DNA of 63,243 bases, filler included, from Folioceros fuciformis (taxonomy: Eukaryota), in the NCBI GenBank assembly GCA_049999805.1. It is 4 parts of 4 records of this genome, joined end to end, with 100 filler letters (N's around TTAATTAATTAA, not from the genome) between each part and the next. Parts side by side here need not be neighbours in the genome. Positions count along the whole stretch, not along the records: positions 25,148 to 37,058 come from JBNGIO010006234.1; 3 more parts are not named here. One strand, given 5' to 3'. Position numbers and translations under genes: made by a program. Positions 17,766-40,700 of this stretch are shown in pieces (position 1 is the first letter of the stretch; each line of letters starts with the position of its first letter). Below the pieces are notes generated by a model. It ran no database searches, was not told the origin of the DNA, and saw only the letters and a list, made by a program, of their open reading frames with translations.

Positions 17766-17777
17766 GCTCTGATACCA
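17766..17777 (-). promoter_or_regulatory. Primer-binding site (tRNA-iMet 3' end) of the gypsy element
   Basis: The + strand reads GCTCTGATACCA, the reverse complement of TGGTATCAGAGC. Confidence 0.9.
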
Positions 17778-22249: not shown

Positions 22250-22425
22250 TACTATGTACCCACATATATGAAAGTGACACTCAAACTAGCTGTGGTACCT
22301 ACATATATGAATGTACCTACATATATGAAACGTCGAGCTTTCTTGCATGACACTCAAACCAGCTTCTTTACTCTGTACATATATGAAAGGTGGAGCTTTC
22401 TTACATGTACCTACATATATGAAAG
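22250..22425. repeat. Degenerate tandem repeats (TGTACCTACATATATGAA units) within the gypsy LTR
   Basis: At least five copies of an ACATATATGAA core. Confidence 0.7.
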
Positions 22426-22877
22426 ACGAAGACTTCATTATTCTGAAAGACGGGATGAGAGGAAATGGAGGGCAGTTAACAAGTAAGGGACTAGCCGGAC
22501 TGGCACACATAACGCCTTACCTACCCAACCATAGACCGGTATTGCCGGGCTGCAACCTATTATTACATTTCCTTCTTGCGGACCGTGCTTTTTCTTGTTG
22601 TGGCAGACAGTCGCTTTTGCTACACGCGATCTTCATATACACAAGACTTGACAGGTGCTATAGCAACCTGCCTCATCATCGACTTTCAATAGCACAGCGA
22701 GTTGGCCATACATCGCACTCTTGATTCACCCATCACAGCCAGGCAGTCTGAAAACGGGTACTTTGCACTCGGCCATGCACATAGAGAAAGGAGAAACCAT
22801 AGGAGATACATTTGTGCTGCAACTGAACCACCGACAACCTGTAAAATAGACCTCCAGACTAGAGATACATCCTACAA

Positions 22878-24725
22878 CTACCAATCGAAGGAGTGAACAA
22901 TCTTGGGCGTGGCCACCACTAACGGAGCCCCAGGGGAGCTCGTCGATGCGTAGCTCTCATGCATGAACTTGCTGTCCACAACTGATTCATTCTTGGGAAG
23001 CACTTTGTAACAGAAGCACTCCTTAAGCCGCTCTGCAGACGTTGCCTTGTGGTAACACTCATGATCTGACTTCACAGTCTTGAACTCCCACACGAGAGTG
23101 TGGTTGCCCACACTGGCTACCAGGTTGTGTTCCTGCTTCCCGCTATCCGTCACGAAAGAAAACTGACCCCCATGGAACTTGATGTTCCCTCCTGCCAGAT
23201 ACGTATCCAAGGCAGAGACCTTGAGCAGCCTGGGGGCCGCGACTCGGCTCCCCATCCGGCCAGTGAACCCAGTCTTCTGCTTCCCATCCTTGTCTATGAA
23301 AACAGTGCTGATCAGCAGCAGGTAGTTGTCAGTGGTGGCCAGAATCCACTTCCCGTCATATGTGACATCTATATGGGTGATGGGCAGACCCAGGCCCGGG
23401 AACGCCGTCTTGGCCTGCCGCATGGACGTGGTCCCGTACAGCCGCACCTTCCCGTCTCGGGATCCCACCGCCACGGCTCCGTCCCCGGTCGAAGCGAAGC
23501 ACTGGAAGTTAGTCCCTCTCGAGAACTGGTGCCCTTCAGACCAGTTCAACACCGGACTCGCCAAATCCTGAACCATTCCGTGCCGATCCCTCATATCCCA
23601 TCTGCACAGGCGGTTGTCATCAAGCCCCAAAAAGGTTGACGTAGATGGATCCAACTGCGCCCCTTTGCTGTCATTGGTCATGTCCCGCATCTGAATAGGC
23701 GTCCCATCCTTCTCAAACTTCCACTCCGACACCGTCTTGCCAGTCTCTATATCCAACTGACTCACCCCACTCGCATGCGGCTTCCCCTCCTTAGCCGGGC
23801 TCCAGAGCATGAGGTTGCTCTCCCCCCTGATGAGCATACCCTTCTTAGGTGTCGAGTAGGGATCGCTATGCTGCTGATACCTAATGGTGCTCGTGTTCTT
23901 CACCCCGGTTGCCATGTTCCTGAACACATCCACCCCAGAGTTCCCGACGAGAAAGCTGTGCTCTTTCGCCCCAATAGTCAAGCTCTGCACCCCTCCCCCC
24001 TTGGTCGGTTCCGTGTACGTCTCCCGGAAGTTCCGAATCCTGGCGGGCGGCTCGAACGTGTCCTCCGCATCCTCCCAGATGCTCTCGTCCGCTGCCTCCG
24101 GCTTCGCCCACCCGATAAAGTCCTTACCATACACCTTGATCTTGTTCGCGTCCGTGGCCTGCAACCCGTGCGTGTTCTCGAACAAGCAGTTCTGGTACTC
24201 CGTCACAAAATCCCTGTAATCCTCCGGGCTAGGAAACTTCATCGCCCACACTCCCTTGTACGCCACGTCCACCCGAAGCTCCTCCCCATGGAACTGCAGC
24301 GGCAGCCGGTCTGACACCGGCACCCGCACCCTCCTCCCCACCACCAGAGCCCAATTCTTGACGCCCCTCCGCTTCGCCGCTTTCCTCCCCTCCTCCTCGT
24401 CGTCCTCATCCTCATCCTCGTCGTCGTCCCCGGCCCTGTCAAAGGTCCATGTCGCAGCCTTCTCCACCACGACCCATCGCCCATTAGGCCCCCCCGACGT
24501 CACATGCTGGTACAGCTTCACCTTGGGCCCGGCCTCCGGCTTGCTGAGGCTCAGCCCCTGGAGCCTCTGATTGAGCAGCTCCGTCCTGGCCGCCGGCTCC
24601 TCCCGCACGATCGTGGCCTTCGGGGAGTGGAACCCTTCCGAGTCCTCATCTTCCTCCTCCTCCTCCAGTTCCTCCTCTTCGTCCGAGGAATCGAGCTTGC
24701 TGTCCCTGCTCTGCGACGTCCCCAT
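22878..24725 (-). CDS. CYPRO4 / DEFECTIVE EMBRYO AND MERISTEMS-like VID27-family protein, single exon
   Basis: MGTSQS (myristoylation-like) plus acidic tract; CLFENTHGL...[95 protein letters not shown] at 24725. Confidence 0.93.
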
Positions 24726-25047
24726 AGCTCCCCCTTCAGTCCCTCGGTCCTCACACGCCCACAAATTTGGCAAGCCCTGGCGGCGAGAGCGGGAGCGTGA
24801 AAAAGTGCTATAAGCAAGAAGCAGGTGGCGTATTGCCCCGCGGAGCCGTGAACACTCTCGCCACTTCGTTGCCCGCGCCGGACGAAACCGCGGCAATCCA
24901 AAATTCCGACCGTTCAAGTTTCCGCGCGTTACTCGAATTCGGAGGATTTCTCTTTTGCAAGCCAAGCAACGCGAGGGTGAAAAGCAAGGAAGTACTAGAA
25001 GTTTTTTTTACTGCGGAGAGGATTAAACTGAGCAAGGGAGGCATCAC

Positions 25048-25147
25048 NNNNNNNNNNNNNNNNNNNNNNNNNNNNNNNNNNNNNNNNNNNNTTAATTAAT
25101 TAANNNNNNNNNNNNNNNNNNNNNNNNNNNNNNNNNNNNNNNNNNNN
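25048..25147. other. Assembly join: N-gap with TTAATTAATTAA linker
   Basis: 100-bp N run with a central six-frame-stop linker. Confidence 0.97.
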
Positions 25148-28100
25148 CCTCATAACTCCTTTCATTGCCTCCCAATGCTTCCTGCCAGGGTTTGACATAA
25201 ACCTGCTAACCACTCCCATTGCAAAAGCAATGTCAGGACGTGTAGCAATCATTGCATACATCAAACTCCCTACAGCTGATGAGTATGCAACCTTTTCCAT
25301 TTGAGCTTGGGCAATCCTTGCTCGAAAGTTTCACATATGGAGGCAACGGAGTACTCAATACCTTCCCTTTCTCCATGTTGAAATGTTGAAGCACCCTGTT
25401 AATGTATTCAATCTGAGACAAGTAAAGCAAATGCTTCTGTCTGTCTTGACGAATACGCATGCCAAGAATATGGCTTGCCTCTCCCAAGTCTATCATGTGA
25501 AAGCGAGCATTCAACTTTGACTGCAACGCTGAAATCTCATCACTGCTTTTCCCAGCAATTAGCATATCATCCACATAGAGGACCAAAATGAGAAAGCTTC
25601 CATCCTTAGCTTGCTTCGCATAGAGGCAGTGATCTTCATCGCTACGTTTGTAGCCTTAAGAAAGCATAAATGAGTGGAACTTGTAATACCACTCCTTGGG
25701 TGCCTGTTTCAAACCATAAAGGCTCTTCTTTAATTTGCACACCAGATTCTCTTTGCCCTTCTTAATCAAACCCTCTAGTTGCTGCATGTATCCCTCTTCC
25801 TGGAGATCACCATGTAGAGATGCCGACTTCACATCCATCTGGACACGTTCCATGTCATTCCTCGCAACAAGAGCAAGAACACATCGCAAAGTGGTCATTT
25901 TGACAACTGGTGAGAAAATCTCATAAAAGTCAATACCTTTCTGTTGCTTAAAACCCTTAGCAACCAATCGTGCCTTGTACTTGGATTTGCTATAATGGGG
26001 TATGTCCTTCATCTTATACACCCATTTGCATGGCAATGCTTTCTTACGCCTAGGCAACCGAACCAACTCCCAAGTTTGGTTCTTATAGAGCGAATCCATC
26101 TGCGACTGCATCGCCTTCTCCCACTTGTCCTTATCAGTCGCTAACATGGCCTCTTGATAACAAGAGGGCTCCCCACAACTTGTCAGCATGACATAATCAA
26201 GAGATGCAACATACCTGTTAGGAGGACGTGAAATCCTTCCTGACCTACGAAGCACAGGCACCTCGACCGGAGCTGGTTGCATTCTCTTTTCTTCTACAAG
26301 TGAAGGAGCAGGTTCCTGTACATCACGACGTTCAACCTGCACAAGACGGTCAAGTCCATCCTTTTGGAAGACCACCCGTTGCACCTCCACAATTGGAGTA
26401 GGCTTCTTGTGCATCTTGGTCTCATTGAAGAACACATCACTGCTGCGAACAACCCTCTTGGCCTCTGGATCCCATAGGCGATATCCCATCTCCCCAAATT
26501 CACCATAGCGAAGAAAAATACATTTCTTGGACTTGGGTGCCAACTTGTCCCGAAACTCCTCTGGAACATGGTAGTATGCCTCGCAGCCAAACACTCATAG
26601 ATGCTTGTATGACGGCTTCTTTCCAAGCCACATCTCCTCTGGAACCTGCTCATCCACAGCCTTATTGGGAGATTTTTTAATTAGATGCACCGCAGTAACC
26701 ACTGCTTCTGCCCAAAATCCGTTAGGCAATCCAAAGTTTGACAACAAACTACGCATCCTCTCCTGGATGGTCCTGTTCATCCGTTTAGCCACACCACTAT
26801 GGGGAGGAGTATACGGGGCAACCATTCTCTCTTAATTCCCTTGGAATCACAGAATGATTGGAAAGCCTTCGAAACGTACTCTCTCCCATTGTTTATCCTT
26901 AGACACTTTAGTCGGAAGCCAAACTAATTCTCTATAAGGGTGACGAATTTCTGAAACACTGTCAGAACATCACCATTTTTCCTCAAAGGATAAACCCATA
27001 CCTTGTGTGAGAAATCATCAATAAAAGTGACAAAATAGGATGCACCGCCTAATGATACAGTGGGCATATGTCCACACACGTCACTGTGAACCAATTCAAG
27101 AGGTTTACTTTTGTGTTTACCGCTTGCTCCATATGGTGACTTCATCTGTTTCCCATACAAACAGTGCTCACACACGGAGAAATCGGAGAAGTCAAAAGCA
27201 CGGATGTAACCTAAACAAGATAAGATCTTCATTCCTTTTTGAGACATATGTCCTAACTGACAATGCCACAAGGAAACACTTGGCTATTCCGTTACACAAA
27301 TCACATGATCCTTGACAATGGTTATTAGAAGTGAGTACAAAGTGCCACACTTCGATCCATGAGCTAACACAAGAGAACCTTTAGAGATCTTCCAAGAATG
27401 ATCCCCAAACCAACAGTGGTAGCCAGCGTCATCCAATTGCCCTGCGCTAATCATGCTTTTTGTCAACTTTGGAACATGCCTAACATCCTTCAGTATGAAT
27501 GAAGATCCGTTGTCAAACATTAGCTTCACATCACCAACGCCTGCAATCTCGCATGTGTAGTTATTTCCAAGCCGAACACATCCTTTCCTAGTAGCATCAT
27601 AGGTGCTAAACCATTCCCTATGCGGAGTAACATGGAAAGATGCTCCAGAGTCAATTATCCAATTAGAGAATAAATGACTATCCATGGTTGTCAATTGTGC
27701 ATAATTGAAGGAAGAAGATATAAGAACATCTCCATCGTTAACAAAATTCACCTCGTCATGCTTGATACTCAGACTTGCCTTGTTGTCGCTCTGCTTCTCT
27801 TCCTTTCCTTTCTCCTTCTTGAACTTCTCATAGTCCCTTCTGATGTGACCATTTTTGTGACAACGGTAACACTCAACATTGTTACGACTACGAGATTTGC
27901 TACGGGAAAGACTTCGCTCCTTGTACTTCCCCTTTAATCTGGACCTTCCTCTCACCATGAGGGCATTGGAACCTTTCAAAGGTTCCATATTCTTCCTATT
28001 CACCTCTTCTGTTAACAGGCTACCTTCTACATTTACAATGGTGAGACCACTGGCAGGAGCGGAATTACTCAGAGCTGTACGAAAGGTGTCCTAACTCTTT

Positions 28101-29461
28101 GATAATGTGACCAACAGAAACATAGCTCTTACGGAATCTGGGAATGAGATACCTTGAGATGAGAGCTGGCTGAAAATGGTATTGAACTCATTCAAATGAT
28201 CGGACATCCTCGTCCCTTCCTTCATCTTCAAGTCCACCAGCTGTTTCAACCGGTACACCTGAGAAGCTGCACTTTGCTTCTCATATAGGTCACACAACTT
28301 CTGCCATAGCTCGTAATTTGTGGTCTTGTCTTTTACATTGAAGTAGACCGACTTCAACAATGTTAGCATGATGGTAGACCTAGCAAGCTCATATAGATCC
28401 TGCCACTCATCCTAAGTCATGCTAACAGGTTTCACTCCTAGCAACTTTATGGGCTTGATTTGCTTCTTCTGCACTAGAACATTATACACTTGTTCTTTCT
28501 AGAACAGGAAGTTAGTATCATCTAACTTCTTGATATTGAACATGACCTTTACTGAGGACGTCATCATTCAAAATCGATGCAAATCAAGCAAAAGGCTAGT
28601 TAGAAACTGTTGGAATGTAATGTAGATTTTGATAGTTACTCTCACACCTTGTTCTGAATCGGTTGTCCACAATTTAGGTCGACACGACAGGCCTAAATCC
28701 TCCGATCGAGATCTCTGATCCACCTCACGGCCGGGATCCTGCTAGTTCGCACTCACGTCGCCCGCGCCCCGGCGCCTGTGCCTCAGCGTCTTCGCATCGA
28801 TCACGCCTCGGTGCCCTCACTCGCGGCGTCCATGGCGCTCCGCGGCGCCCAGCGCTCGCCGCTTCGGTGCCGGCGCCAGCGCCAGCGCTCGTGGGGCCTG
28901 GCGCCCCAACGCCCGTGTCAGGTGCCTACGGAGCTCGGGGGGCCTAGCGCCCCCGAGGCACCTAGGCGACCTGACACCCCCTCCCCGGGGCGGCTGGGGG
29001 CTGGCAGCCCCTGCAGCAGGGGACCGCTGGGCTGGCGGTGCCCACGCTGGGGTCGGGCCTAGTGCCCCGCACCCGTGGCTGGTGCTTTGGCCCCCTTGGT
29101 GCCCGGTGCCCCACCTAGATGCCCATCCTCACAACCTTGCGCCTTTGTCCGCATCACCTGCAGCCAACACTATCTTACTCCACACCCACGCTTTGATATC
29201 CGTCGAAGGATCGATAGAGGAGCTACAGGGTGAAGGAGGAGAGGAGAAAGAGAGGTCTCACACTCTCACAATGTCTCTATTGCAAGGGAGCTCAAGGGGG
29301 TATTTATACCCTCTATAAGAGCTCCCAAGGAAGCTGCGCAAGAAGCTTCTTACAAATTACCTTAAGCTAATCTAAACAAATGATACTTAACTAGACACTA
29401 ATCTTAGACTAAACACATTAGTCTAAGCACATTGGGCTTTAATGACCCTACACTGTCAACA
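25148..29461 (-). mobile_element. Decayed Ty1/copia element (Tnt1/Tork-like), 3' part lost in gap
   Basis: 5' LTR ~29461-29201 (TGTTGAC..., TATAAATA); degenerate PBS GATATCAAAGC 29200-29190; gag ATG 28567; CYRCHKNGHIRRD; WIIDSGASFHV; LVHSDVCG; LYVDDML; YSSAVGSLMYAMIATRPDIA. Multiple stops and frameshifts. Confidence 0.92.
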
Positions 29462-31272
29462 AATCACAACATGATGTCTGACAAAAGGCGGAGAGTGTCA
29501 TTCATTGAGCAAGTCAGGTATCTTCGGGATGAACTTATTATAGCCAAGCAGGATGGCATGCAAATGACTATGGCATAGAAGTTCAACCTATACAAGGTAC
29601 TAGGCTTGATAGAGGATGATGTATACAAGCAAAATAAGGTGGATAATCAAATGCGCATCCTTTGCATAATGAAGGAGGAAGGCAAGGTTTGGGAGAATAT
29701 AGACAAAATATTCACCAGGTGGGAAACCAGAGAATTGCTAGAGCAAAAGAAGCATACCACAGTGGGCACCAGCAAAAAAAGGGAAGGGAAAGAGGAATCC
29801 CTTGGACGACTCAAAGCCGGTTGACTCACGATATGAGAAGCCCAAGGATATGCTGGCCAAGCCCTGGAAGTCTTTCCAAGGCATACCACCTGAACAATGT
29901 GGACAACATATATTGATCATGGCAACGGAAGAGGTGTTGGTGGGTATTATTGACTTGAAGGGTATGGACGATGACATAACGTTGCGGAAGAAATTTCACA
30001 TCATTCAAGTTGCAATGGCGAAGCATCTGGGGTGCAAGTCATTTGAGGAGGTATGGGCAGAGTATCCAAAGCACTTCACCGACGACATGCTGGTGAGGTT
30101 TCAAACGCAATTCGCTAGAAAGGTGAGTAATTTAGTTCCTGCACATTGGTAGATAGGGTTCTAGTGGCTGCACTTGGCTGAGGGCTCTGGCTGGCCAATG
30201 CCCTCCCTCACTTGCAGCTACTAATACCACAGGCTGGGCAGAGGGAAGGCCGGGCTGAGGGCGCCGGCCAACCCGGCTTTTTTAATTGCAAACTTGGCAT
30301 TGGCGCAAGGGCTTTAAATTCATATTCTCGTTTGTTGTTAATGTGTAGCAACTTAAAGATGTGGACAACTTGTCACGCTTGCTGGAAGCTTTCCAACAAT
30401 TCATTTTCAAAGTTAACAACTGGAAGGGTTTGGAGGAAGAGCAACGGGTTCTCGCCGACAAGGATTTGTAGGAAGGAATGTTCTCCTTCGCAATCCCCGG
30501 AGCTGATACTCAAGTATAGTATCAGGTGGTAAGTAAGAGTGTTATGAAGATGAAAGGATTTCTCCGACCAAGGAAATACTCCCTCCTTGTTAGGGATGTT
30601 CCAAGAGGCTATGACATGGGCCCTATGGACAAGTGTTTCGATGAGCCCATGATAAGCATAGCATTGGAAAGCTTTGTTGAGAAGATGACTTGTGATGAAT
30701 ATAGGTTAGTTGTTATGCATGGAGTGGAGGACGCCCATACAGTTAGATAGGCCCTTCAGAAATGGTGTCGGGTCAGAGGCGTGACCTCGTTTGTCTGGGA
30801 CAAGTCAAACGTGTCCAATGACAAGGGCAGATATGAGACTATGAAGTACATCATAGTGGCTTGGGGTGCAAAAGAGGGCAGTGGAAAAGATAGAGTATTC
30901 ATGCTTCTCAGAGTTTCCCATGCCCTATTCAACAGAGAGAGATCTATCATAGCCCATGACTTGGTTGTGAAGAAGCAAATCTATCTATCATAGGATAAAC
31001 GTGTCATATGCCCTTATCAGCGATCGTTGGGTCGTAGGATGAAACTTGTGCTTGCATTCTAGGAAGGAGGAGATTGGGTGGTGGATGCTTGCTCCATTAG
31101 TGAGACAACGACATTGGCAGGGCTGCTGTTGGGGAGAAATTGTATCTCAGTTGAGGCGGACTTGCAATGTGCGGCTTACATACCCCAACGGATCAATGGC
31201 CACGAGGTTCTTCTCGATGTGGAAGAGGAACTAACGTTTGATGTGCATCGTAGGGGCCCGTCCCAATTCTAG
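29462..31272 (+). pseudogene. Decayed intron-containing gene with a C-terminal beta-class DNA N6-adenine/N4-cytosine methyltransferase domain (N6_N4_Mtase-like)
   Basis: One frame 30349-31272 read through TAG stops: YSLLVRDVPRGY (motif IV, DPPY-like), FVWDK, KYIIVAW, ICPYQRSLGRRMKLVLAF*EGGDWVVDACSISETTTLAGLLLGRNCISVEAD (motifs X-I-II). A phase-0 intron 30123-30348 (AAG|GTGAGT...TGTGTAG|CAA) joins it to an upstream exon cut at the copia LTR. Confidence 0.75.
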
Positions 31273-31381
31273 GCAAGGGAAGTTTGCATTAGCAATACCA
31301 ATAGCGTGAAAGCCTAAGTCACGCCTCTCAACCGACGGAGCGCTCAACGCCCTCTCAGTACCTCCAGTGAAGTTGGGTAGA

Positions 31382-32600
31382 TGTGGGGGAGAATATTGCA
31401 CCTGGGGGTGTTGCGAGGTCCACACAAACCCTCTTTGTCGTTATAGCACTGGGATTCGATCCCAAGGGAATGATTCATGTTAAATAACATAGGTTTTCTC
31501 ACAAAGTCAATTACTACCCAGGGACAGTCTTTACTTACCTATTACTCGCCTACTTGCTGTTCAGCTACCTCGGCCTCCGTCGCGACTTGGCTACCTTGGC
31601 CCTAAACTACCTGACAGACGTACTCGGCTATTGGGGTGGGTCTCGTCAACTACCGACTCTCGGCTACCTCCGTTGTTTATCTACAACGGTCGCAGTTTCT
31701 ACTACCTCAATGGGACCCACTCTTTCTCTCTCTCTCCTCTCTCTACCCTAGGTCACTTACCTCTTCCAGTTAGGCTCAGGATTCACTTGGGGTCTCAGAG
31801 TTTCCTCACTACTGCCAGGACTCACCGCTAGACATCCACACACACCTCTTCACGTCGCCCTCTACGCATCTCATAGTCCGTTTACGTTTAAGGCCACGCA
31901 CTCCAACACCGCGCTCCCCTTGGGTCACGATCAGACACTACCACCCCCCGGTCTCACCTTCACTCTTCACCTCCAAACGACCTCCCACTAGAATCTCCCC
32001 ACGACCTTGGCTAGCAGCTCTCAGTCCACTAATATCACAATGCTCGTAGCGCTTCAGGCTATTCCCCACAACGTTCCCTACTCATGCATTTCAGTCAAGG
32101 ACTCAAATTGAGTTTCGACCACGATCCGCTCGCATCTCCATACCACACCCCGTCACTAACCCAGCGGGGTCCCACTGCTCCTTCACTTACGTCTGCTTCC
32201 ACAGCTCACTGAACACACAAACAACTAACCCATCCCCGTCTTCCAAGCACACACCCACAATTCCTCCCAGGTCACTCAGTTTCGCCAGCACTCCAGACAC
32301 CCCGCCGTCGCCTGCATCCGCGACTTCGTTCCCACACACGCAGTCCTCACAACAATGGCCACTTAGGGCCGCCTTCACATTTCACAAACATACACACGTT
32401 GACTCTCTCAGTCTCACATTCACGGCACACAGACGCTTCGCCCTCCGTCACTTCCCCATCGCCTACATCCACGACATCCTTCTCACATACTCAACTTCCA
32501 AACCATCAGCTACTCAGCCACGCACTCACATTTCTCAATCCACTCACGTCATTCAACTTCCTTCCTCCAACTCGCCCGTCCAGGGCCTTCTCCTCCTCTC
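31382..32600 (-). mobile_element. Truncated copy of the large solo-LTR-like family
   Basis: TGTGGGGGAGAATATTGCACCTGGGGG...GGTCCACACAAACCCTCTTTGTCG...GGGATTCGATCCCAAGGGAATGA matches the first ~100 bp of the element at 18201. Right end is approximate (interrupted). Confidence 0.75.
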
Positions 32601-32624
32601 TGTAATTGGGGGGAATGGTGGAAT

Positions 32625-35600
32625 TGTTAAGCATGATTAATGTTGATATTAATTAGTGTTAATCCAGCTTATTGAGTTTGTACTAATTAGTGGTAAGAGT
32701 GATTAAGGTTATGATTTATATATATAAATATATATAGCTTATTAGACTTTGCTATGTTGGGCAAAAGAAGTATTGTAGGGTTTGGTTGGGGTCATTTATC
32801 CCATATTGGGCACAAAATGAGAGTGCCACCCATAGGTCCATAAAAGAAGGGATGAACCCACTTAGTATAGGCAGTCTAACTCCCTCTTCACTTGTATTGT
32901 GTTGTTTTTGTAATTCTCCTTTTTATTTGAGTTTAAGAGCCTTGTTATAGTGCTCTTAGTTTTGGGATTCTGCATCTTGCTTCAACTAACTTGTTTTAAC
33001 CTCCTTTGAGCATGGCGGGGGTGACATCTCAACAGGTTATGGGCCCACACACCCAAGGGACCGTCACTCTACAAGTTATCTCAAAGTTTGGAGGTGACAA
33101 CTTCAACTTGTGGAAGTTCAAGATGCAAATGTTGTTGGCTGAAAAAGGCCTTTGGGGAATTGTGTCGGGGACCGAGGAGCGTCCAAATGAAGTGGAGAGA
33201 CAGCCCAAGTGGGATGAGCTTGCAGGCAAGGCCTTTGCAAATATTTGTTTCAACTTAGAAGATGCACAATTGATGCATGTGACCACTTGCAAATCAGCAA
33301 GAGAGGCTTGGTTGAAATTAGAGGCTTTGTATGAGAACAAGAGCCTTGTGAATCGCTTGTTCTTAAGGCGTAGATTCTTTTCCATTCAAATGGGTGAGAG
33401 TGATAGTGTGATTGAGCATGTAGACAAGGTGAGGAGTCTTTCCCAACAATTGGCAGTCATTGGAGCTCCTGTGACGGATGATGACCTTGTGATGACTCTT
33501 CTTGCAAGCTTGCCGGAGTCATATAACAATTTGATTGTTGCTTTAGAATCAAGAGTAGATGCTCTTACATTTGAGATTGTTGTGGGAAGACTACTCCATG
33601 AGGAGACCAAACGAAAGGAGAAGGGGAAGACATCGGAAGAATCAGCCTTTGTGACCAAGAAGATTGGCGATGGATCAGCCAACCTTGTGAAACAAACGGA
33701 GGCCTCTTCATTCACGGGGAGAAATCGTAGATCTAATCTCACTTGCAATTACTGTGGCAAGGTTGGACATTTTGCAAGGAATTGCTTCAAGAGAGATCGA
33801 GATGAGAAGACAAAGAGTCAAGGAAACTTCGTGGAAGAGTATGAGGAAGCTTTTGTGTGCACACATCATCCCTCCAAGCAAGTCGAAGAATGGTACATTG
33901 ATTCGGGAGCTACGGAGCACATGACCAATAGGCGTGAGTGGTTCCAATCTTTCAAGTCCATTGCTGCTACCAAGATCTATTTGGGTGATAATTCAATCCA
34001 AATGTGTGAGGGGGAAGGTGTTGTGGCAATGGATATGACCACACCTAACGGAGTAGTGCGTGGGATGTTGAAAAGGGTGCTATACGTACCAGGCTTGGGG
34101 AAGAACTTGTTTTCCGTGAGTGCAACCACCTCTCTAGGATTGGTAGTGAGATTTGAAGGATCTAATGTGTCTTTCACTAATGCGCACGGAGAAGTGAGGG
34201 CACAAGGAGAAAAGATTGGCAAGCTCTATTGCTTGAGTGGGAGCGTTGTCATGCCGAGGTCGAGCATCGAGGAGGCAAATGTGGTACAAAAGAACACTAA
34301 CAAGTTGCTCTTATGGCACCAAAGGCTAGGACATCTTGGCGTTCAAAACATCAAGCTCATGGATCGTAAGAAAATGGTGCAAGGACTCGATCTTGGTGAA
34401 GACGAAGACATTGGCGTTTGCAAAGGGTGTATTATGGGTAAGCAACACCGCCTTCCATTTCCAAAGCAAGGAAGTAGATCCAATCATTTGTTAGAGGTGG
34501 TGCATACAGACATCTGTGGTCCCATGAAGACCACATCCATAGGAGGTGCTAAGTATTTTCTTACCTTCACGGATGATAAGTCTAGATATACGACGGTGTA
34601 CTTTTTGAAATCCAAGGAGGCATGCTTCTCCAAATTCAAGGAGTACAAAGCATTTGTGGAGAACCAAATTGGGAGAAAGATCAAGACTCTACGAAGTGAC
34701 AATGGAGGGGAGTACATGTCCAAGGAATTTGAGATGTTTTGCAAGGAGCACGGAATTGTTCATCAATTCTCAGCACCTTATAGTCCTCAACAAAACGGAG
34801 TTGCAGAACGCAAAAATAGAACTTTGGTAGAATGTGCAAGAAGTATGTTGCACCATGGAGGATTGGGATATGAGTTTTGGGGTGAGGCTATTGCAACTGC
34901 TGTGTATCTAACAAATAGGAGTGTGACTGCATCATTGGAGGGCATCACACCCGAAGAGTGTTGGACCGGAAGGAAGCCTTCCATTGCTCATTTGCATGTC
35001 TTTGGGTGCAAGGCATTTGTGCATAAGTCCAAGGAGATAAGAACCAAGTTGGAGGCAAAGTCAGTGGAGTGTATTTTTGTAGGTTATGACTTGGAGAGAA
35101 AAGCTTTTCGATTGTATGACGAGGGAGCGAAGCGTGTCATAATTAGTAGGGATGTGATTTTTGAGGAAAATGGAGTTGCTATCACTAAGATTCCAAATGT
35201 GTCTATTGTGAATGATGATGATGACTTTACAGTGGCCCTAGAAGAAACAACAAGGGATGATGCTTCTATTGAAGAGAACAAGGGGATTTCTGATGAAGGA
35301 GAAGTAGAGGAGCAAGCACAAAGGCAAGAAACGCCTCCACCAAAGAGGTATCCGACAAGGGAGCGACGGCCACCTAAGGATTGGAGAGAAGGACCAGAGT
35401 TTGCTTCCATTGCTATGACACACGGAAGGGAACCATTGACTGTGGCTGAAGCTCTACAAGGGAAGGATTGCGAGCACTGGAAAGAAGCCATGGATGAGGA
35501 GATGAGGTCCCTTGAAGGTAATGATACGTGGATGTTGACAACATTGCCCGCAGGAAGGAATGCCATTGGGTGTAAATGGGTGTTTAGAATCAAGAGAAAT

Positions 35601-37058
35601 GCAAGTGGGAAAATTGATAGATTCAAGGCTAGGTTGGTGGTGAAGGGATACTCCCAAGAGGAGGGCATTGACTACAATGAGACATTTGCACCAGTTGCCA
35701 AGTTTGCATCCATCAGAACCTTACTTGCAGTGGGAGCAATGTATGATTTGGAGATTCATCAAATGGATGTGAAAACAGCATTTCTAAATGGGGACTTGGA
35801 GGAAGACATTTACATGGAGCAACCCCAAGGCTATGTAGTTATGGGCAAGGAGAACATGGTTTGCAAATTGAAGAAAGCTCTTTATGGATTGAAGCAGGCT
35901 CCAAGAGCTTGGTATCAAAAGATTAACTCATATCTTTTGGAGCAGGGTTTTCGGCAATGCACATCAGATGAGAGCATCTACATTTTTGAGGTCTCCCAAA
36001 GTAAGGTAATCTTAGCCATATATGTGGATGATCTTATCTTGTTGAGTCCATCTTTAAGCAGTATTGATAAAGTGAAGGAGATGTTGTCAAAGAAGTTTGA
36101 AATGAAGGACTTAGGGAACATCAACTATTGTCTTGGAATTGAAGTGCGGAGGGATAGGGCAGCACGTATCATCAGGCTTGGTCAGCAAGGGTATGTTGAG
36201 GGATTATTGGAGCGATTTGGAATGATGGATTGCAAGCCTATTGGGACCCCTCAAGACTTAGGCGTGAAGTTGTGTAAGGTTGACTACTCATCAAATGATG
36301 GGGAGGAGCATGAGATGAGTAACATCCCATATAGGGCAGCAGTTGGAAGTTTGATGTATGCCATGGTAGGAACACGTCCAGACATTGCAAAGGCAGTGGG
36401 AGTAGTGAGCCAATTTATGCAAAGCCCTGGAAAGCAACATTGGATTGCGGTGAAAAGGATCATGCGATACTTGAGAGGTACAAGTGATATGTGGTTGGAA
36501 TTCTCGGGTGGAATCAAATGCCATAATATTATTGGGTATTGTGACTCCGATTGGGGAAGTGATCTTGATGATAGAAGATCAACTACAGGATATACTTTTA
36601 TTTTAGGAGGAGGTGCCATTACCTGGAATAGTAAGAAGCAACCCACGGTGGCCATATCGACAGTTGAAGCTGAGTACATGGCATCCACACAAGCCACCAA
36701 GGAGGCCGTATGGTTGAGAAAGCTCATGGAGGAGATTGGTTATGAACAATTGCATCCGACCACTCTTAGGAGCGATAGTCAAGGAAGTATGGCCTTGATC
36801 AAGAATCCAGTGCATCATGCAAGGACAAAGCATATTGACATTCAACATCACTTTGTACGTGAGAAGGTGAAGTTATTGGAGGTTACCTTTGAATATTGCA
36901 ACACTGAGGAAATGGCTGCAGATTTCTTAACCAAGGCAGTGAGTAAGTTCAAGTTTGAGAAATGCAGGGGACTACTTGGACTGAAGCAAACTCAAGTGCG
37001 CTGAGTGGGAGTGTTAAGCATGATTAATGTTGATATTAATTAGTGTTAATCCAGCTTA
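32625..37058 (+). mobile_element. Intact, young Ty1/copia LTR retrotransposon (3' LTR runs into gap)
   Basis: 5' LTR 32625-33034 (TG...CA); PBS GGTTATGGGCCCA 33035-33047; PPT GAGTGGGAG 37003-37011; 3' LTR from 37012 is identical to the 5' LTR over all 47 visible bp. Confidence 0.96.
33012..37004 (+). CDS. Copia gag-pol polyprotein, uninterrupted (~1330 aa)
   Basis: Gag KFGGDNFNLWKFKM; CNYCGKVGHFARNC; protease WYIDSGATEHM; LWHQRLGH/CKGC; integrase VHTDICGP, RSDNGGEY, NGVAERKNRT; RT IYVDDLI; RNase H YCDSDW, EAEY, ADFLTK. Confidence 0.97.
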   Translation: MAGVTSQQVMGPHTQGTVTLQVISKFGGDNFNLWKFKMQMLLAEKGLWGIVSGTEERPNEVERQPKWDELAGKAFANICFNLEDAQLMHVTTCKSAREAWLKLEALYENKSLVNRLFLRRRFFSIQMGESDSVIEHVDKVRSLSQQLAVIGAPVTDDDLVMTLLASLPESYNNLIVALESRVDALTFEIVVGRLLHEETKRKEKGKTSEESAFVTKKIGDGSANLVKQTEASSFTGRNRRSNLTCNYCGKVGHFARNCFKRDRDEKTKSQGNFVEEYEEAFVCTHHPSKQVEEWYIDSGATEHMTNRREWFQSFKSIAATKIYLGDNSIQMCEGEGVVAMDMTTPNGVVRGMLKRVLYVPGLGKNLFSVSATTSLGLVVRFEGSNVSFTNAHGEVRAQGEKIGKLYCLSGSVVMPRSSIEEANVVQKNTNKLLLWHQRLGHLGVQNIKLMDRKKMVQGLDLGEDEDIGVCKGCIMGKQHRLPFPKQGSRSNHLLEVVHTDICGPMKTTSIGGAKYFLTFTDDKSRYTTVYFLKSKEACFSKFKEYKAFVENQIGRKIKTLRSDNGGEYMSKEFEMFCKEHGIVHQFSAPYSPQQNGVAERKNRTLVECARSMLHHGGLGYEFWGEAIATAVYLTNRSVTASLEGITPEECWTGRKPSIAHLHVFGCKAFVHKSKEIRTKLEAKSVECIFVGYDLERKAFRLYDEGAKRVIISRDVIFEENGVAITKIPNVSIVNDDDDFTVALEETTRDDASIEENKGISDEGEVEEQAQRQETPPPKRYPTRERRPPKDWREGPEFASIAMTHGREPLTVAEALQGKDCEHWKEAMDEEMRSLEGNDTWMLTTLPAGRNAIGCKWVFRIKRNASGKIDRFKARLVVKGYSQEEGIDYNETFAPVAKFASIRTLLAVGAMYDLEIHQMDVKTAFLNGDLEEDIYMEQPQGYVVMGKENMVCKLKKALYGLKQAPRAWYQKINSYLLEQGFRQCTSDESIYIFEVSQSKVILAIYVDDLILLSPSLSSIDKVKEMLSKKFEMKDLGNINYCLGIEVRRDRAARIIRLGQQGYVEGLLERFGMMDCKPIGTPQDLGVKLCKVDYSSNDGEEHEMSNIPYRAAVGSLMYAMVGTRPDIAKAVGVVSQFMQSPGKQHWIAVKRIMRYLRGTSDMWLEFSGGIKCHNIIGYCDSDWGSDLDDRRSTTGYTFILGGGAITWNSKKQPTVAISTVEAEYMASTQATKEAVWLRKLMEEIGYEQLHPTTLRSDSQGSMALIKNPVHHARTKHIDIQHHFVREKVKLLEVTFEYCNTEEMAADFLTKAVSKFKFEKCRGLLGLKQTQVR

Positions 37059-37158
37059 NNNNNNNNNNNNNNNNNNNNNNNNNNNNNNNNNNNNNNNNNN
37101 NNTTAATTAATTAANNNNNNNNNNNNNNNNNNNNNNNNNNNNNNNNNNNNNNNNNNNN
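37059..37158. other. Assembly join: N-gap with TTAATTAATTAA linker
   Basis: 100-bp N run with a central linker. Confidence 0.97.
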
Positions 37159-37387
37159 TGAAAGGCTGCAGCAGTAATGGCGCTCCAAGGCCGGCTGTAC
37201 AAGGGATGGGGTTGCGTCCCTCTCAATAACAATTCCAAGTGTGAACTTCTGTGTCTTGAATATGTGCGCTATGGGTTGGAGACATTCGATCGATAGAGGT
37301 CTAATTTTGCAAGTTGTCCCCTTGTCACAAGAGGACCAGGAAGATCCTTGGGGTGGTCGAGAGCTATGTGACCAGCTCCTTGATAGG

Positions 37388-37790
37388 TGTGGCTAGTGGA
37401 AGGGGTGTTCTGCACCTGTAAGGAAGAGAAATTTCTGCAGAAGGTCGGGGTGGGGAACGCGAGTTTTGAGAAACCCCCTAGAAAGCCGAGAGGGAGCGCG
37501 AGTTTCATGAAACTCTTGAGAGCTGGCCGACTGTGATTTTTCCCTTCCTCACTCCGTTGTCTAACCAAGTCGTGTTTAGATCTATGTGAGGAGTCTATGT
37601 GGCTTAAGGAGGAGTCTGTGTGGCTCAAGGAGAGGCTTGTGTGGCCTAAGGAGAGGCATGTTTGGCCTAGGAGGGGACTGTGTGTCCCAAAGGTTGGGGT
37701 GGCTAGTGGAGAAGAGTGCTGTGCACCGGGAGAAAGGGGGATTTCTGCAGAAGGTCAGGGTGGGAATGCGAGTTTCGCAAAACCCCTGGA
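37388..37790. repeat. LTR-like fragment with a ~90-bp direct repeat and internal ~21-bp tandem units
   Basis: GTGGCTAGTGGA...ATTTCTGCAGAAGGTC...AAACCCC at ~37388 and ~37700; GTGGC(T/C)(T/C)AAGGAG units at 37600-37670. Confidence 0.6.
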
Positions 37791-40700
37791 TAATGAAATA
37801 GTTAAGTCACCTAAAGTTAGGTTAACTAAGTGTTTGTGGTTTTATGAACAGTTATAACCACCTGCACAAACTTTGCATATATCTTTGGATTTCCCGTGAA
37901 ACTAATAACCGCTTTTATTCTTCCTTCACGTGCATGCTAGCACCGATGCTCTCTCAACCTCTCGTGCCCCTCGTGATCCACAATAACATTATGGTATCAG
38001 AGCCAGGTGATCGGAGCACGAGCTCAGATGCGCTGTCTTACAAGATGCCGAAGAGAGGGCCCGTAGCACGCGCGCCATGAAGGAGGTGTTTGTAGAAGGG
38101 GAACAAATCCCCGTGACAAGGAGAACCTTTGTGTGTCCAAGCTATTGGGAAGACGATCAATCTCCTATCCCGACATCCCGACACATCAAAAGATTGTTTC
38201 AATGGGAACGACTACAACACGTGGTCATTAAGGTTGACACAAATCTTTGAGAAAAATGAGCTTATGTCCGTGGTGGATGGGAGTGTGAGATGCCTTGCTG
38301 CACCAACAACCAATGCTGCCGACGTACTTGATTGGAAACGAAAGGGCAGGAGAGCACGTTCTATTCTCATTGCCTCACTGGACAGAAATATGATGCCTCA
38401 CACTCTTGGTGCTGACACCTCTGCAGCTGTGTGGCACAGTTTTGCCTAGATTTACAAGGATAAGAGCAATGCTTCCCAAGTCTTTGCACACAGGGACTTT
38501 TACGGCATGAGAATGAAGGATAGTGACTCTGTCGAGTCCTACATCAATCATTTCAGAACTGCACGTGCAACTTTGGCATATTGTGGTACTATTCACACTG
38601 AAGAACAAGCAGGAACGTGTCTGTTGGCTTCTTTACCCCAAGCTACAGCCACTTTATGAGCTCGCAGTTTGCTCAAGCCTTGTCTGCAACAACTAGAGGC
38701 CTGCCTGGTATAACCTCGGATGAACTAATTGGAGCTCTTTTAGTGGAGGAACGCACCAAGGGTTTCCACAAAGGAGTCAAAGGGGAATCACAGCAGCACT
38801 CCAGAGTTTTGTTTTCTGGTCGAGGCAGAGGGAGTTTTCGAGGACGTGGTCGTGGTGGACAAGGGTGTGGAGGCTACCCCACAGCTAAGCAACCGAACTT
38901 GCAAAGGAAAATCTTCACTTGTCATTGGTGTAAGATTCCTGGTCACTTTGAGAAAGACCCGGAAAAAGCTTGCTGGGGAGCCTCTTAAGGAAGGGACTTC
39001 TCATGAGTCAAACCTGACCACATCGAAGTCTCCAACCATGGCTAAGTCCCCTTCCATTTTAGCAGTCTGTCTATCTTCTCTGCAAATTTAGGCTGATATG
39101 TGGTTTTTGGACTCTTGTGCCACAAATCACATCTGCTATGATAGGAGAGCTTTTAGCAACTTTTCCTCTACTCCTGACAGTCTGCAGTTCGTTTTGCTAG
39201 GGGATGACAGTGGTCTGGCCATCAAAGGTTCGGGTTCAGTCACCATCGAGTTGCCTAATTCTGAGGTCATAACCTTGTCAAGTGTGCTTCATGTTCCAGC
39301 CATGACCAAGAACCTCATGTTGGTCATGAAGTTAGCAGAAGAGCACTCTTGTCGTATATGCTTTGATCACACGGGCTGCTCAATATCTCGCATACCTGGT
39401 TGGGATGACATTTTTTCAGGCACTCCCTTTAATGATCTGTACCTTTTAAATGTAAGAACTGTACCACACCAGCCCACTGTCCATATTAGTTAGTCTCCTT
39501 TTTTATCTCCAACGCAACTGTGGCACTGTCGCCTTGGCCATGTCAACTTCCAGAGGCTTTCAACCTTGGTTAACAACACTGTTTTTCATGATCAGTTGTC
39601 TTTTCCCTTTGATAGGCAAGACTTTTGTGACTCCTTCCAAGTTAGCAAGGCTATTTCCCAGCCCTTCTGAGATCAGACCCTATCAGGAGCCACTTCCCTG
39701 TTACATACAATCCATAGTGATCTATGTGGTCCAATGTCCACAGCGTCTTTTGGAGGTGCCCTTTACTTTCTTACCTTCATCAATGAAGGGAGTCGTTATT
39801 GTTCAGTCTATGTGCTGCATAGCAAGAGTGACACCTTCACCTATTTTCAAGACTATGTGGCCATGGCACAGCGATAGACAGGGTGCAAGCTTAAGATATT
39901 TCGATCCGACAATGGAGGGGAGTACATCAATCATGCCTTCTTTGATTTTTGCTCGACAGAGGGAGTTATTCATCAATTCACGGTTCCTTATACCCCTGCT
40001 TAGAATTCCTTTGCTGAACGCAAGAATAGGACACTCTAGGAAGCCACTCTTTGTAGCTTATCTTTTGCTGGTTTGACTCGTGGATATTGGGCAGAGGCAT
40101 TAGTGGCCACCAACTATGTACAGAATCGGCTTCCCACTAAGGAACTTGGTCTCATCAGACCTTACGAAAAGTGGACAGGCAAGAAACCCCGTATCTCTCA
40201 TTTGCGGATTTTTGGCAGTCTTGCATATGCCTTGGTTCCCTCTCAACTGCGAAACAAACTGGATCCCAAGGCAGTTCGACACACATTTGTGGGTTATGCA
40301 GAAGATGTGAAGGGTTACAAGCTCTTTGACCCAAGTACCCGTCAGCTTTCCTATTCCCGTAGTGTCATTTTTCCTTGTTACGACGTCATGATATCTTGCT
40401 TTCCCCCTCTTCTGTCTTGCCACCTACCACGATACAAGATGTTGATGATGAGCTTGATTTTGCCACTGACAAGGACATTGATGTTGCTATTTTTGATTTT
40501 GATGATCTCACTATAGGCCCTACTACTTCAGCTTCACGGGGGCAGAACATACAATCACCCTTCAACAGCAGTCACACTGATGTCACCCACAGTTCAGATG
40601 AGTTACCTGTACCTTGTTCTTCTAGTTCTCTTGCTGATCCTGTGACTGTTGTTGAACCTGTAGCAGTAGACCCTCCTGTCAATTTTCTGGTATATTTACC

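Follow-up and report, generated by a model that had tools for sequence, protein, structure and literature searches.

The window analyzed here is a 63,243-nucleotide stretch of Folioceros fuciformis DNA (assembly GCA_049999805.1), joined from four parts, of which positions 25,148–37,058 come from record JBNGIO010006234.1. On the plus strand, between two retrotransposons, positions 29453–31272 very probably hold a 5′-truncated, decayed pseudogene of a dispersed, multi-copy streptophyte family with a C-terminal beta-class DNA amino-methyltransferase domain (probability about 0.9). The features of the locus are given below; residue numbers refer to P0001, the read-through product of exon 2 in which every TAG is written as X.

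29210–29452, minus strand: copia 5′ LTR, inner boundary approximate (contig depth, loose ends, minus-strand TGTAGGG)
29453–29776, plus strand: exon 1, first frame, with the tail of the N-terminal domain and linker; in-frame TAG at 29576–29578 (tblastn)
29774–29780, plus strand: frameshift site (+1) in a run of seven A (A7; tblastn frames)
29778–30122, plus strand: exon 1, second frame, stop-free, with the helical linker KPWKSFQGI ... AKHLGCKSFEEVWAEYPKH ... FQTQFARK
30123–30348, plus strand: phase-0 GT-AG intron of 226 bases (homology break and splice signals)
30349–31272, plus strand: exon 2, with a linker helix and a complete beta-class amino-methyltransferase domain (HMMER, PDB profile, Foldseek)
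30595–30612, plus strand: motif IV (catalytic loop), DVPRGY, residues 83–88
30793–30810, plus strand: VWDKSN, the conserved W-x-K-x-N block, residues 149–154
31012–31026, plus strand: motif X-like PYQRS (consensus PYQKP; K to R, P to S), residues 222–226
31075–31110, plus strand: motif I, SAM binding, WVVDACSISETT, residues 243–254
31132–31161, plus strand: motif II, GRNCISVEAD, intact, residues 262–271
31389–31496, strand not assigned: piece of an unrelated high-copy repeat directly 3′ of the gene, 80% identical to 18208–18314

Exon 2 carried in-frame stops at 30469, 30517, 30748, 30991, and 31060 and a terminal stop at 31270, every one of them TAG. An earlier reading of this DNA, made from the sequence alone (the sequence-only reading), had described the frame 30349–31272 as open except for these five internal TAGs; this was confirmed, and the translation reproduced the peptide strings quoted there. 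That reading had also proposed an upstream exon with one stop and one frameshift, and both were located, as TAG at 29576 and as a change of frame in the A7 run at 29774–29780. In tblastn, residues 184–275 of P0007 (Ginkgo) aligned with 29462–29725, the upstream exon opening with NHNMMSDKRRRVSFIEQVRYLR at 29462, and residues 241–355 of P0042 (Chara) with 29465–29821 (E = 4e-10); P0043 and P0044 behaved likewise. Residues 67–161 of P0036 matched 29775–30071 (E = 1e-13), residues 390–480 of P0042 matched 29838–30125, and residues 61–210 of P0167 matched 29697–30134 (E = 6e-18). The frame running from 29465 was replaced at the A7 run by the frame running from 29775. One contig each of runs X1 and X2 had one letter fewer at 29774, so that both exon 1 frames are continuous there. 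Neither Rfam nor ARAGORN gave a match.

Upstream, the coding homology meets the copia LTR. The summed contig depth at 29216–29527 was 2e4–9e4, compared with 8–10 at the single-copy positions 31712–31900, and diverse loose contig ends lay behind 29452 (27 contigs) and before 29205. Read on the minus strand, the LTR starts with TGTAGGG at 29452 and contains TATAAATA; contigs of run X4, guessed to be RNA, matched only the LTR, at 29387–29452. The gag-pol region of the element lies at approximately 25233–28411 on the minus strand, where gag and reverse transcriptase ORFs were seen. Near 29198–29209, the minus strand carries GGATATCAAAGC, which we take to be a degenerate version of a tRNA-Met primer site; the exact motif was absent beside the LTR and matched twice elsewhere. 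A search for the LTR pair as direct repeats of at least 80 bases within 20000–40000 found none, and a run of N at 25048–25147 adjoins the other side of the copia element, so that the partner LTR lies within the N runs or past them. On the 3′ side of the gene, the depth at 31400–31503 was 6e3–8.6e3, with loose contig ends behind 31495/31496. Joints from 29419/29450 to 31415 were also seen; these join two high-copy repeats, with a short side of only 20–26 letters.

The sequence-only reading had placed the start of the exon exactly at the LTR edge. The homology does meet the LTR, but the edge is at 29452 and not at 29461; coding homology may therefore start at 29453, the position where the alignment of the paralogue contigs begins. 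Its further claim, that the copia insertion separated the 5′ part of the gene, is consistent with the start of homology at the repeat edge; no piece of the N-terminal domain was found elsewhere in the window. The LTR cuts off the first ~230 codons. Such a separation fits the data, with the other flank placed beyond the N run.

The two exons are linked by the phase-0 intron that had been proposed earlier, with GT at 30123–30124 and AG at 30347–30348. The splice signals are GTGAGT at 30123 and TAG/C at 30346–30349, neither exon edge splits a codon, and homology ends at 30122/30125 and restarts at 30349. After removal of the intron, the spliced read-through product (531 positions, X at each break) aligned in one piece with intronless relatives. 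It matched residues 230–777 of P0010 (789 residues) with E = 4.8e-28 and P0167 with E = 2.5e-50, and it also aligned with P0014 (residues 1174–1708) and P0015. Because the alignment with P0010 starts at residue 230 of 789, ~230 N-terminal codons are absent from the window copy. The relative P0166 reads through the intron site (..FGGL/VSEF, compared with ..FARK/VSNL in the window), and P0167 is the exact join of residues 1–184 of P0166 and residues 14–229 of P0009. The same intron is spliced out in a relative. An intron-sized diverged segment is retained in a paralogue contig.

When P0001 was compared with 1.84 billion proteins by phmmer, 33 matches were obtained at E ≤ 1e-3, 13 of them at E ≤ 1e-10. 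The best match, P0004, covered query residues 2–295 (E = 2.9e-32), and the level of matching is, by these E-values, far beyond chance. P0001 alone scored 16.4 bits against PF01555 (N6_N4_Mtase; cut-off 26.7; E = 0.0093; residues 232–273), and this stretch around motif II was the only direct Pfam match of the window product. Because the window sequence lies below the Pfam cut-off, its family membership rests on intermediates. All 10 of the top relatives scanned passed the PF01555 gathering cut-off (27.3–65.7 bits compared with 26.7), and so did P0017, P0035, P0036, P0168, and P0041. The family profile matched 11 distinct PDB sequences at E ≤ 1e-3, and all 11 were DNA amino-methyltransferases. 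They included 5hek “DpnA” (2.8e-14), MboIIA, CcrM, the 8urk/9c3u methyltransferase (M.BceJIV by its name in the Foldseek list), TTHA0409, RsrI, and rotifer N4CMT (1.5e-7). In the PDB, the profile thus matched only the class of enzyme that had been named from the sequence, and no unrelated family.

Exon 2, read through its stops, was modeled with AlphaFold (pLDDT 77.9, pTM 0.77); for this model, Foldseek gave 179 matches in the PDB at E ≤ 1e-3, the best being CcrM (6pbd, 3.8e-13). Among the matches listed, ranks 1–30 were all beta-class enzymes, and the top matches (E = 3.8e-13 to 3.2e-8) comprised CcrM, RsrI, BceJIV, TTHA0409, MboIIA, HpyAVI, N4CMT, and PvuII. The predicted fold of exon 2 is that of a class I methyltransferase like the solved beta-class enzymes. 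Of the profile and structure matches that the sequence-only reading had called for, the structural one was obtained, but the direct match to PF01555 stayed below the cut-off. That the methyltransferase likeness is due to chance, or that the domain has a different fold, is practically negligible as an explanation. It draws on the sub-threshold Pfam match and on the direct PDB sequence search with P0001, which returned chance-level matches only, headed by Csm5 (E = 0.0045; DpnA 0.24), and it is refuted by the phmmer relatives, their Pfam scores, the PDB profile, Foldseek, and the one-piece alignment. A search for near-full-length protein homologues with P0001 found nothing at E ≤ 1e-3.

The permuted motif order of the beta class (IV, W-x-K-x-N, X-like, I, II) is present in exon 2. 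The same order and fold occur in the bacterial and phage enzymes M1.HpyAVI (“DpnA,” 5hek), CcrM (6pbd), M.RsrI, M.MboIIA, and M.PvuII; the E-values of the bacterial beta-class enzymes were 2.8e-14 to 1.2e-8 with the family profile and 3.8e-13 to 3.2e-8 with Foldseek. In contrast to these enzymes, the family has a eukaryotic host, an intron, and a long N-terminal extension, and the window copy is a pseudogene. The catalytic loop differs as well. Canonical motif IV is (D/S/N)-P-P-(Y/F/W), whereas the family carries D-hydrophobic-P-(Y/H/R)-G: the family consensus is D-hydrophobic-P-Y-G (D-x-P-Y-G in Chara, Riccia, and Adiantum), Ginkgo has D-I-P-H-G, the closest subfamily has D-L-P-R-G, and the window has D-V-P-R-G-Y. 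In a 16-sequence alignment, D83, P85, and W150 were invariant and G87 and N154 nearly invariant, and Y223, Q224, and K225 are conserved across the family.

The sequence-only reading had regarded both DVPR and ACSISET as degenerate. The second is real decay: the window has D-A-C-S-I-S-E-T, in which the glycines of the family motif D-x-C-S-G-S-G are gone, and the relatives read WVLDLCSGSGT or WIVDGCSGSGS. DVPR, however, is a conserved subfamily state, as D-[LV]-P-R-G is present in seven family sequences and invariant in 6/6 sequences of the closest subfamily. With the motif I glycines lost, the window copy is not to be filed as an active member.

The window copy is dead: six internal TAGs and a +1 frameshift break its reading frame, motif I is ruined, and its branch in the tree is long. 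It would be unable to make an enzyme. In the tree, it fell within the seven-row D-L-P-R-G clade (support 99/97), with a terminal branch of 1.78 compared with a median of 0.38. All six internal stops in 527 codons were TAG, with zero TAA or TGA. This uniformity would also be expected if the gene were still functional and its TAGs were read through or recoded. Such recoding is extremely unlikely: the neighboring CYPRO4-like ORF ends in TAG, which is therefore a real stop in this genome, and the frameshift, the missing ~230 N-terminal codons, the lost motif I glycines, and the branch length all stand against it. Moreover, the TAG-only pattern fits C-to-T change at CAG, by deamination at methylated CAG. 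In-frame CAG occurred 4 times compared with 20 for CAA, and the observed/expected ratio of CWG was 0.80 in the gene compared with 1.20 for the window. Among the 40 rows listed for the paralogue contigs (there are 627 more), no difference was seen at the TAG positions. The claim of a dead, spliced, multidomain beta-class relic is thus upheld by the HMM intermediates, the PDB profile, Foldseek, the one-piece alignment, and the relative with the intron removed.

Intact relatives are, by sequence, proteins of ~670–860 residues in which a helical linker joins an N-terminal domain to a C-terminal beta-class (PF01555) domain. Of the 30 matches looked up, 9 carried an organism name, in each case Chara, Riccia, Adiantum, or Ginkgo and never an angiosperm. 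Unstudied streptophyte members of the family include GBG86584.1, GBG66685.1, GBG75370.1, and GBG77312.1 of Chara braunii, KAL3685543.1 and KAL3699649.1 of Riccia sorocarpa, MCO5553878.1 and MCO5614432.1 of Adiantum nelumboides, and Gb_37443 and Gb_14868 of Ginkgo biloba. Direct HMMER searches place these streptophyte proteins in the same family as the window copy, with which they have the linker and the tail of the N-terminal domain in common. The Chara and Riccia proteins are named “DNA methylase N-4/N-6 domain-containing protein” or “hypothetical protein” in their sources, those of Adiantum only “hypothetical protein,” and those of Ginkgo only by a gene-model id. A neighbor gene in the window has its nearest counterparts in lycophytes and ferns. 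No description of the family was found in the papers searched, although supplementary tables of the cited papers may list members.

Within the same organism, the number of distinct contigs at one place reached 8 in X1 and 10 in X2, figures that are summed contigs of one sample and not a copy count, and the paralogue pieces were ~84–86% identical. Chara has eight gene models, and the length of the longest contig differs for every one of them. The copies in the same organism keep the intron and were therefore duplicated at the DNA level rather than via RNA. Several diverged, intron-keeping copies in one organism could mean that the family travels, as the sequence-only reading had thought probable, as cargo of a DNA-level mobile element, the window copy being a dead insertion, which would refine the pseudogene reading. 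The raised depth that reaches ~440 bases beyond the stop codon, to ~31711, points the same way, as do the eight dispersed gene models of Chara, many of them fragmentary or chimeric, and the unrelated N-terminal sequence of the Adiantum model P0168. On the other hand, the window shows neither a transposase nor terminal inverted repeats nor a target-site duplication, the 5′ end being lost behind the copia insertion. Only one methyltransferase copy was found in it by tblastn with 37 family proteins, and among ten further large ORFs there, Pfam identified just a CGL160 domain and a copia reverse transcriptase. We regard mobile cargo as a tentative proposal, well under even odds.

The spliced form in a relative suits a host gene equally well, and the locus may instead have arisen by duplication within an ordinary host gene family evolving by birth and death, and then have decayed, without a mobile element. 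The window copy shares its intron position with a relative despite a protein identity of only ~30%. In addition, D-L-P-R-G is kept among sequences 36–55% identical to P0004, pointing to selection for a host function. The same multi-copy evidence, and the position of the locus within a transposon-rich block, count against simple host duplication, which we consider credible at somewhat less than even odds.

The third origin considered was a remnant of an endogenized giant-virus or phage-derived insertion, as opposed to a long-resident plant gene. Among viral models, Foldseek found 34 matches at E ≤ 1e-3; pandoravirus and megavirus methyltransferases were among them, as was a phage ParB/Sulfiredoxin fusion. 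tblastn with P0010 matched 301 phage records, in which, among the matches listed, only residues 534–789 aligned, at 23–29% identity. PF01555 fused to a ParB-CTPase fold is reported to be enriched in phages (PMC12704722), and such fusions have the layout seen here, an N-terminal accessory domain followed by PF01555. Nevertheless, the viral matches were no better than the bacterial ones, the spliceosomal intron is common to distant relatives, the family ranges from Chara to Ginkgo, and no other viral genes were seen nearby. A viral remnant is accordingly a distinctly improbable origin. In metagenome scans, neither P0010 by itself nor the subfamily alignment A4 yielded a relative. A scan of bacterial and archaeal genomes (A5) found 20 loci, mostly Microbacteriaceae, in which ~44–75 residues from motif X to motif II were matched; none of them matched the N-terminal domain queries P0044 and P0167. 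This sample is biased by its single search pattern and is thus silent on origin.

The N-terminal domain of the family, of which the window retains only the last few residues, had no match in Pfam, PHROGs, or the PDB profile search. Its AlphaFold model was poor (pLDDT 53), and Foldseek with this model placed ParB/Noc at ranks 1–6 with E = 0.56–1.3 and a probability of at most 0.25. Atlas offered leads only, namely unnamed animal clusters, DUF3723, and ParB_N, the last at rank 12 (0.93) with only 136 shared features. A G-G-G-H-x-x-E-A block of the family presumably resembles the G-G-C-H-R block of sulfiredoxin/ParB. A ParB-like N-terminal domain is a weak lead.

The MpDN4MT1a/b sperm 4mC methyltransferases of Marchantia are, to our knowledge, the one studied plant case, and they are reportedly essential for sperm function. 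The preprint describes them as prokaryote-type beta-class amino-methyltransferases of a land plant with the catalytic motif TSPPY (bioRxiv 10.1101/2021.02.12.428880). Compared by this published motif only, they differ from the D-x-P-Y/H/R-G of the present family, and S-P-P-Y was absent from all family members examined. The bdelloid N4CMT, a laterally acquired eukaryotic amino-methyltransferase, has the same fold (8s9m/8s9n/8s9o, Foldseek ranks 19–28, E = 3.5e-9 to 1.3e-8); in contrast to the present family, it carries a C-terminal chromodomain and no such N-terminal extension (PMC8885841). Pfam detected no chromodomain in P0001 or 10 relatives. Few amino-type DNA methyltransferases are ascribed to land plants (Iyer et al. 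2016, PMC4738411).

In the intact relatives, the target base would be flipped and the methyl group of SAM transferred to an exocyclic amino group, that of adenine N6 or cytosine N4. The aspartate that opens motif IV favors adenine. In the D-L-P-R-G subfamily, arginine takes the place of the motif IV aromatic residue, and catalysis may therefore be changed or lost. The family might be functional and anciently acquired, with a possibly ParB/Srx-like N-terminal domain joined to the beta-class methyltransferase, and form a second plant lineage besides MpDN4MT1; as a whole, this is rather unlikely. The named relatives (9 of the 30 looked up) all come from lineages with flagellated sperm, and the family might therefore deposit 6mA or 4mC during gametogenesis or for transposon control and have been lost together with motile sperm. 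The D-L-P-R-G subfamily, in which motif I is intact, could have a new specificity or bind DNA without catalysis.

The window locus itself does nothing. It illustrates the death of a gene, which was cut by a copia insertion and afterwards gathered TAG-only stops, and its value is as a pointer to the family. This is a distinct beta-class family in charophytes, liverworts, ferns, Ginkgo, and Folioceros fuciformis. Its catalytic loop is unusual, its N-terminal domain unclassified, and its intron conserved, and one relative has a spliced form. Its intact members, if active, would be candidate writers of 6mA or 4mC in plants with large, transposon-rich genomes.

P0001, the read-through product of exon 2 of the methyltransferase relic (29453–31272, + strand) with TAG read as X, scored 16.4 bits against Pfam N6_N4_Mtase (PF01555; E 0.0093, residues 232–273), with the cut-off at 26.7, and a direct PDB sequence search with it gave matches at chance level only. 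Index-free HMMER of P0001 against 1.84 billion proteins returned 33 relatives at E≤1e-3, 13 of them at E≤1e-10, with P0004 as the best (E 2.9e-32, query residues 2–295). All ten top relatives scanned passed the PF01555 cut-off (E 6e-7 to 7.6e-18), as did five further relatives. The beta-class motif order is visible in a 16-sequence family alignment:

Motif order in the family alignment
1st: motif IV, D-x-P-x-G
2nd: W-x-K-x-N block
3rd: P-Y-Q-K-P block
4th: motif I, W-V-L-D-L-C-S-G-S-G-T
5th: motif II, G-R-N-x-x-A-V-E

At E≤1e-3, the profile of this alignment matched 11 distinct PDB sequences, every one of them a DNA amino-methyltransferase, including 5hek (2.8e-14), MboIIA, CcrM, 8urk/9c3u (M.BceJIV), TTHA0409, RsrI, and rotifer N4CMT. 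The AlphaFold model of P0001, made with the same alignment (pLDDT 77.9, pTM 0.77), retrieved CcrM (3.8e-13), RsrI, BceJIV, TTHA0409, MboIIA, HpyAVI, N4CMT, and PvuII in Foldseek, where MT-A70 enzymes did not appear before rank 39. The sequence-only reading had tied its call of a SAM-dependent amino-methyltransferase fold to such profile or structural matches, and given these PDB profile and Foldseek results the call therefore stands.

The gene model was reproduced as well. Frame 1 translation of 30349–31272 returned the peptides quoted in that reading and its in-frame stops at 30469, 30517, 30748, 30991, and 31060; the terminal stop at 31270 is TAG, like all internal stops. The phase-0 intron opens with GTGAGT from 30123 and closes with AG, its last base at 30348, and each exon meets it at a codon boundary. 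The upstream exon has the expected one stop and one frame change: its first frame starts at 29462 (NHNMMSDKRRRVSFIEQVRYLR...) and carries TAG at 29576, the frame switches near 29775, and the second frame runs from ~29775 to 30122 without a stop. One methyltransferase copy was detected in the window by tblastn with 37 family proteins. At looser settings, the upstream exon proved homologous over its full length to the N-terminal extension of long family members:

Matches of family proteins to the upstream exon (tblastn)
Ginkgo P0007, residues 184–275: window 29462–29725
Chara P0042, residues 241–355: 29465–29821, and residues 390–480: 29838–30125 (E 4e-10)
P0036, residues 67–161: window 29775–30071 (E 1e-13)

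A read-through product of the whole relic (531 positions, built by script, with X at each stop and at the frameshift) aligned in one piece with relative P0010, residues 230–777 of 789 (E 4.8e-28), and also with P0014 1174–1708 and P0015 249–684. Because the alignment starts at P0010 residue 230, ~230 N-terminal codons are missing from the relic. For relatives P0166 and P0009 alike, the longest contig measures 16,193 bases. P0166 reads FGGL/VSEF, entering the intron exactly at the splice place of the relic (FARK/VSNL), and P0167, found on a different contig, joins P0166 1–184 to P0009 14–229 exactly. Judged by these three sequences, the intron position is confirmed from outside the window. For the P0167 contig this leaves two readings, a spliced transcript and a processed copy. 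The match of P0167 to the relic product, with an E of 2.5e-50, crosses the frameshift as well as the splice site.

The DVPR of the relic had been taken for decay. This did not hold, as D-[LV]-P-R-G is invariant in a 6-sequence subfamily alignment, the members of which are 32–55% identical to P0004. The motif is present in 7 family sequences, which form a clade of 7 rows, relic included, with support of 99/97 in a 25-row tree; outside this clade D-x-P-Y-G is the family form, with D-I-P-H-G in the two Ginkgo proteins. This maximum-likelihood tree (255 columns) comprised methyltransferase-domain slices of P0001, P0004–P0011, P0013, P0015–P0017, P0019, P0020, P0024, P0025, P0041, P0043, and both P0014 units, and the whole sequences of P0012, P0018, P0023, and P0031. 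Short fragments (P0021, P0022, P0026–P0030, P0032–P0036) were left out, as were near-identical cluster members (P0037–P0040) and P0042, P0044, and P0045.

Contigs from Logan for this organism were aligned over 28800–31900. Their summed depth was 2e4–9e4 at 29216–29527, compared to 8–10 at single-copy 31712–31900, with varied loose contig ends both before 29205 and behind 29452. On the minus strand, the sequence from 29452 begins with TGTAGGG and includes a TATA box. These features mark a short high-copy LTR of a minus-strand copia; the gag and reverse transcriptase of this copia lie at 25233–28411. The exon does adjoin the LTR, as proposed, but its exact place was corrected: contig ends and TGTAGGG set the edge at 29452, nine bases before the one proposed. 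Paralogue contigs align from 29453 with 48 or 111 extra unaligned letters upstream, and other copies are therefore uninterrupted at this place. The other flank of the insertion falls in N runs (25048–25147), with a CYPRO4-like gene directly after; a 5′ part split off by the copia, as proposed, may therefore exist. Between the LTR and gag, a very GC-rich leader (28700–29200) had a depth of 0–12, below single-copy sequence.

Other features of the window
3756–4850 (+): ORF with CGL160 C-terminal domain (E 2e-56)
17766–17777 (−) and 37992–38003 (+): exact tRNA-Met primer-binding motif (0.35 expected by chance)
22881–24722 (−): intronless 614-codon ORF, CYPRO4/VID27-like protein (PF08553 and others among its matches)
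31389–31496 and 18208–18314: ~100-base repeat, 80% alike, summed contig depth 6e3–8.6e3
33000–37004 (+): intact copia gag-pol ORF, 1334 codons, ending in TGA
37005–37058: 54 bases directly after the gag-pol ORF, 96% match to 32618–32671
40363–41547 (+): copia-type reverse transcriptase (RVT_2, E 6e-65)

The best named matches of the CYPRO4-like ORF were Diphasiastrum (64%), Adiantum (61%), Selaginella (60%), Marchantia (60%), and Ginkgo (58%). These identities place the window in a land plant that has no closely related species among those sequenced. The 54-base pair probably represents LTR starts, and the 3′ LTR after the gag-pol ORF enters N runs at 37059. The primer-binding motif pair suggests starts of further LTR elements. 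The ~100-base repeat holds a tRNA T-arm-like GGGATTCGATCCC, and ARAGORN found no tRNA in it; the repeat is possibly a piece of a SINE or MITE. In sequencing runs X1 and X2 of one sample of this organism, single contigs join 29419 to 31415 and 29450 to 31415, from the LTR end to the high-copy repeat, skipping the whole relic. These joints, with a short side of only 20–26 letters, may be a repeat artefact.

The relic contains 6 internal TAGs in 527 codons, with neither TAA nor TGA; since the CYPRO4-like neighbour terminates in TAG, this codon does act as a stop in the genome. The frame shifts +1 within the A7 run at 29774–29780, where two of the runs have one contig apiece that is a letter shorter, leaving the frame unbroken. 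Motif I, rightly called degenerate (ACSISET), reads D-A-C-S-I-S-E-T, whereas relatives keep D-x-C-S-G-S-G, and P-Y-Q-K-P has become P-Y-Q-R-S. The relic branch measured 1.78 compared to a median of 0.38. In-frame CAG occurs 4 times versus 20 for CAA, CWG has an observed/expected ratio of 0.80 within the relic versus 1.20 in the window, and 5 of the 7 TAGs (terminal one included) have G next. From codon content, the TAG-only stops and scarce CAG suggest C-to-T change (deamination) at methylated CAG/CHG sites, with which they fit. In a third run of the sample, X3, C>T (132) and G>A (73) made up most of the differences over 28800–31900 and were fully penetrant within the contigs of that run; X3 has the appearance of a library converted by bisulfite or enzymes, from which methylation of the block could be read. 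The relic copy is a fossil, and relatives, profile, fold, gene model, and decay bear out the core interpretation of a dead spliced amino-methyltransferase.

The N-terminal domain of the family had no match in Pfam, PHROGs, or PDB profile searches, and among the tblastn matches listed for P0010, phage proteins matched the methyltransferase part only. The AlphaFold model of P0044, an N-domain query, was poor (pLDDT 53); its Foldseek search placed ParB/Noc at ranks 1–6 (E 0.56–1.3). In the Atlas, the N-domain drew unnamed animal clusters and DUF3723, with ParB_N in twelfth place. The G-G-G-H-x-x-E-A block of the family is presumably reminiscent of the G-G-C-H-R block of sulfiredoxin/ParB. A ParB-like N-domain is a lead.

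In the sections of the publications used here, MpDN4MT1 is described with TSPPY and set in a tree whose other enzymes are all prokaryotic (preprint, bioRxiv 10.1101/2021.02.12.428880), land plants are said to show few N6A-methyltransferases and the streptophyte family of the relic is not described (Iyer et al. 2016, PMC4738411), rotifer N4CMT is stated to be without eukaryotic homologues (PMC8885841), and ParB-CTPase/PF01555 fusions are reported to be enriched in phages (2025 survey, PMC12704722). A full-text literature search, partial in its sources and with supplements outside it, found no streptophyte PF01555 family besides MpDN4MT1.

Organisms were named for 9 of the 30 relatives looked up (33 matches): Chara braunii (4), Riccia sorocarpa (2), Ginkgo biloba (2), and Adiantum nelumboides (1). 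Angiosperms were not among these nine, which cover annotated proteomes only, where absence is no proof of absence; the CYPRO4 search shows the protein collection to be rich in angiosperm proteomes. The N-terminal part is also present in four further Chara models, bringing the Chara gene models to 8, no two of them with a longest contig of equal length. Chara P0014 (GBG86584.1, 1825 aa) holds two complete N-domain and methyltransferase units in tandem, with long low-complexity sequence between them; the 25-row tree places these units in sister clades. In the organism of the window, up to 8 (X1) and 10 (X2) distinct contigs cover one relic place, the summed depth not being a copy number. Among the pieces listed, paralogues were ~84–86% identical. 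Since one of them retains a segment the size of the intron, duplication took place at the DNA level. The interest of the fossil relic lies in the family that it reveals.
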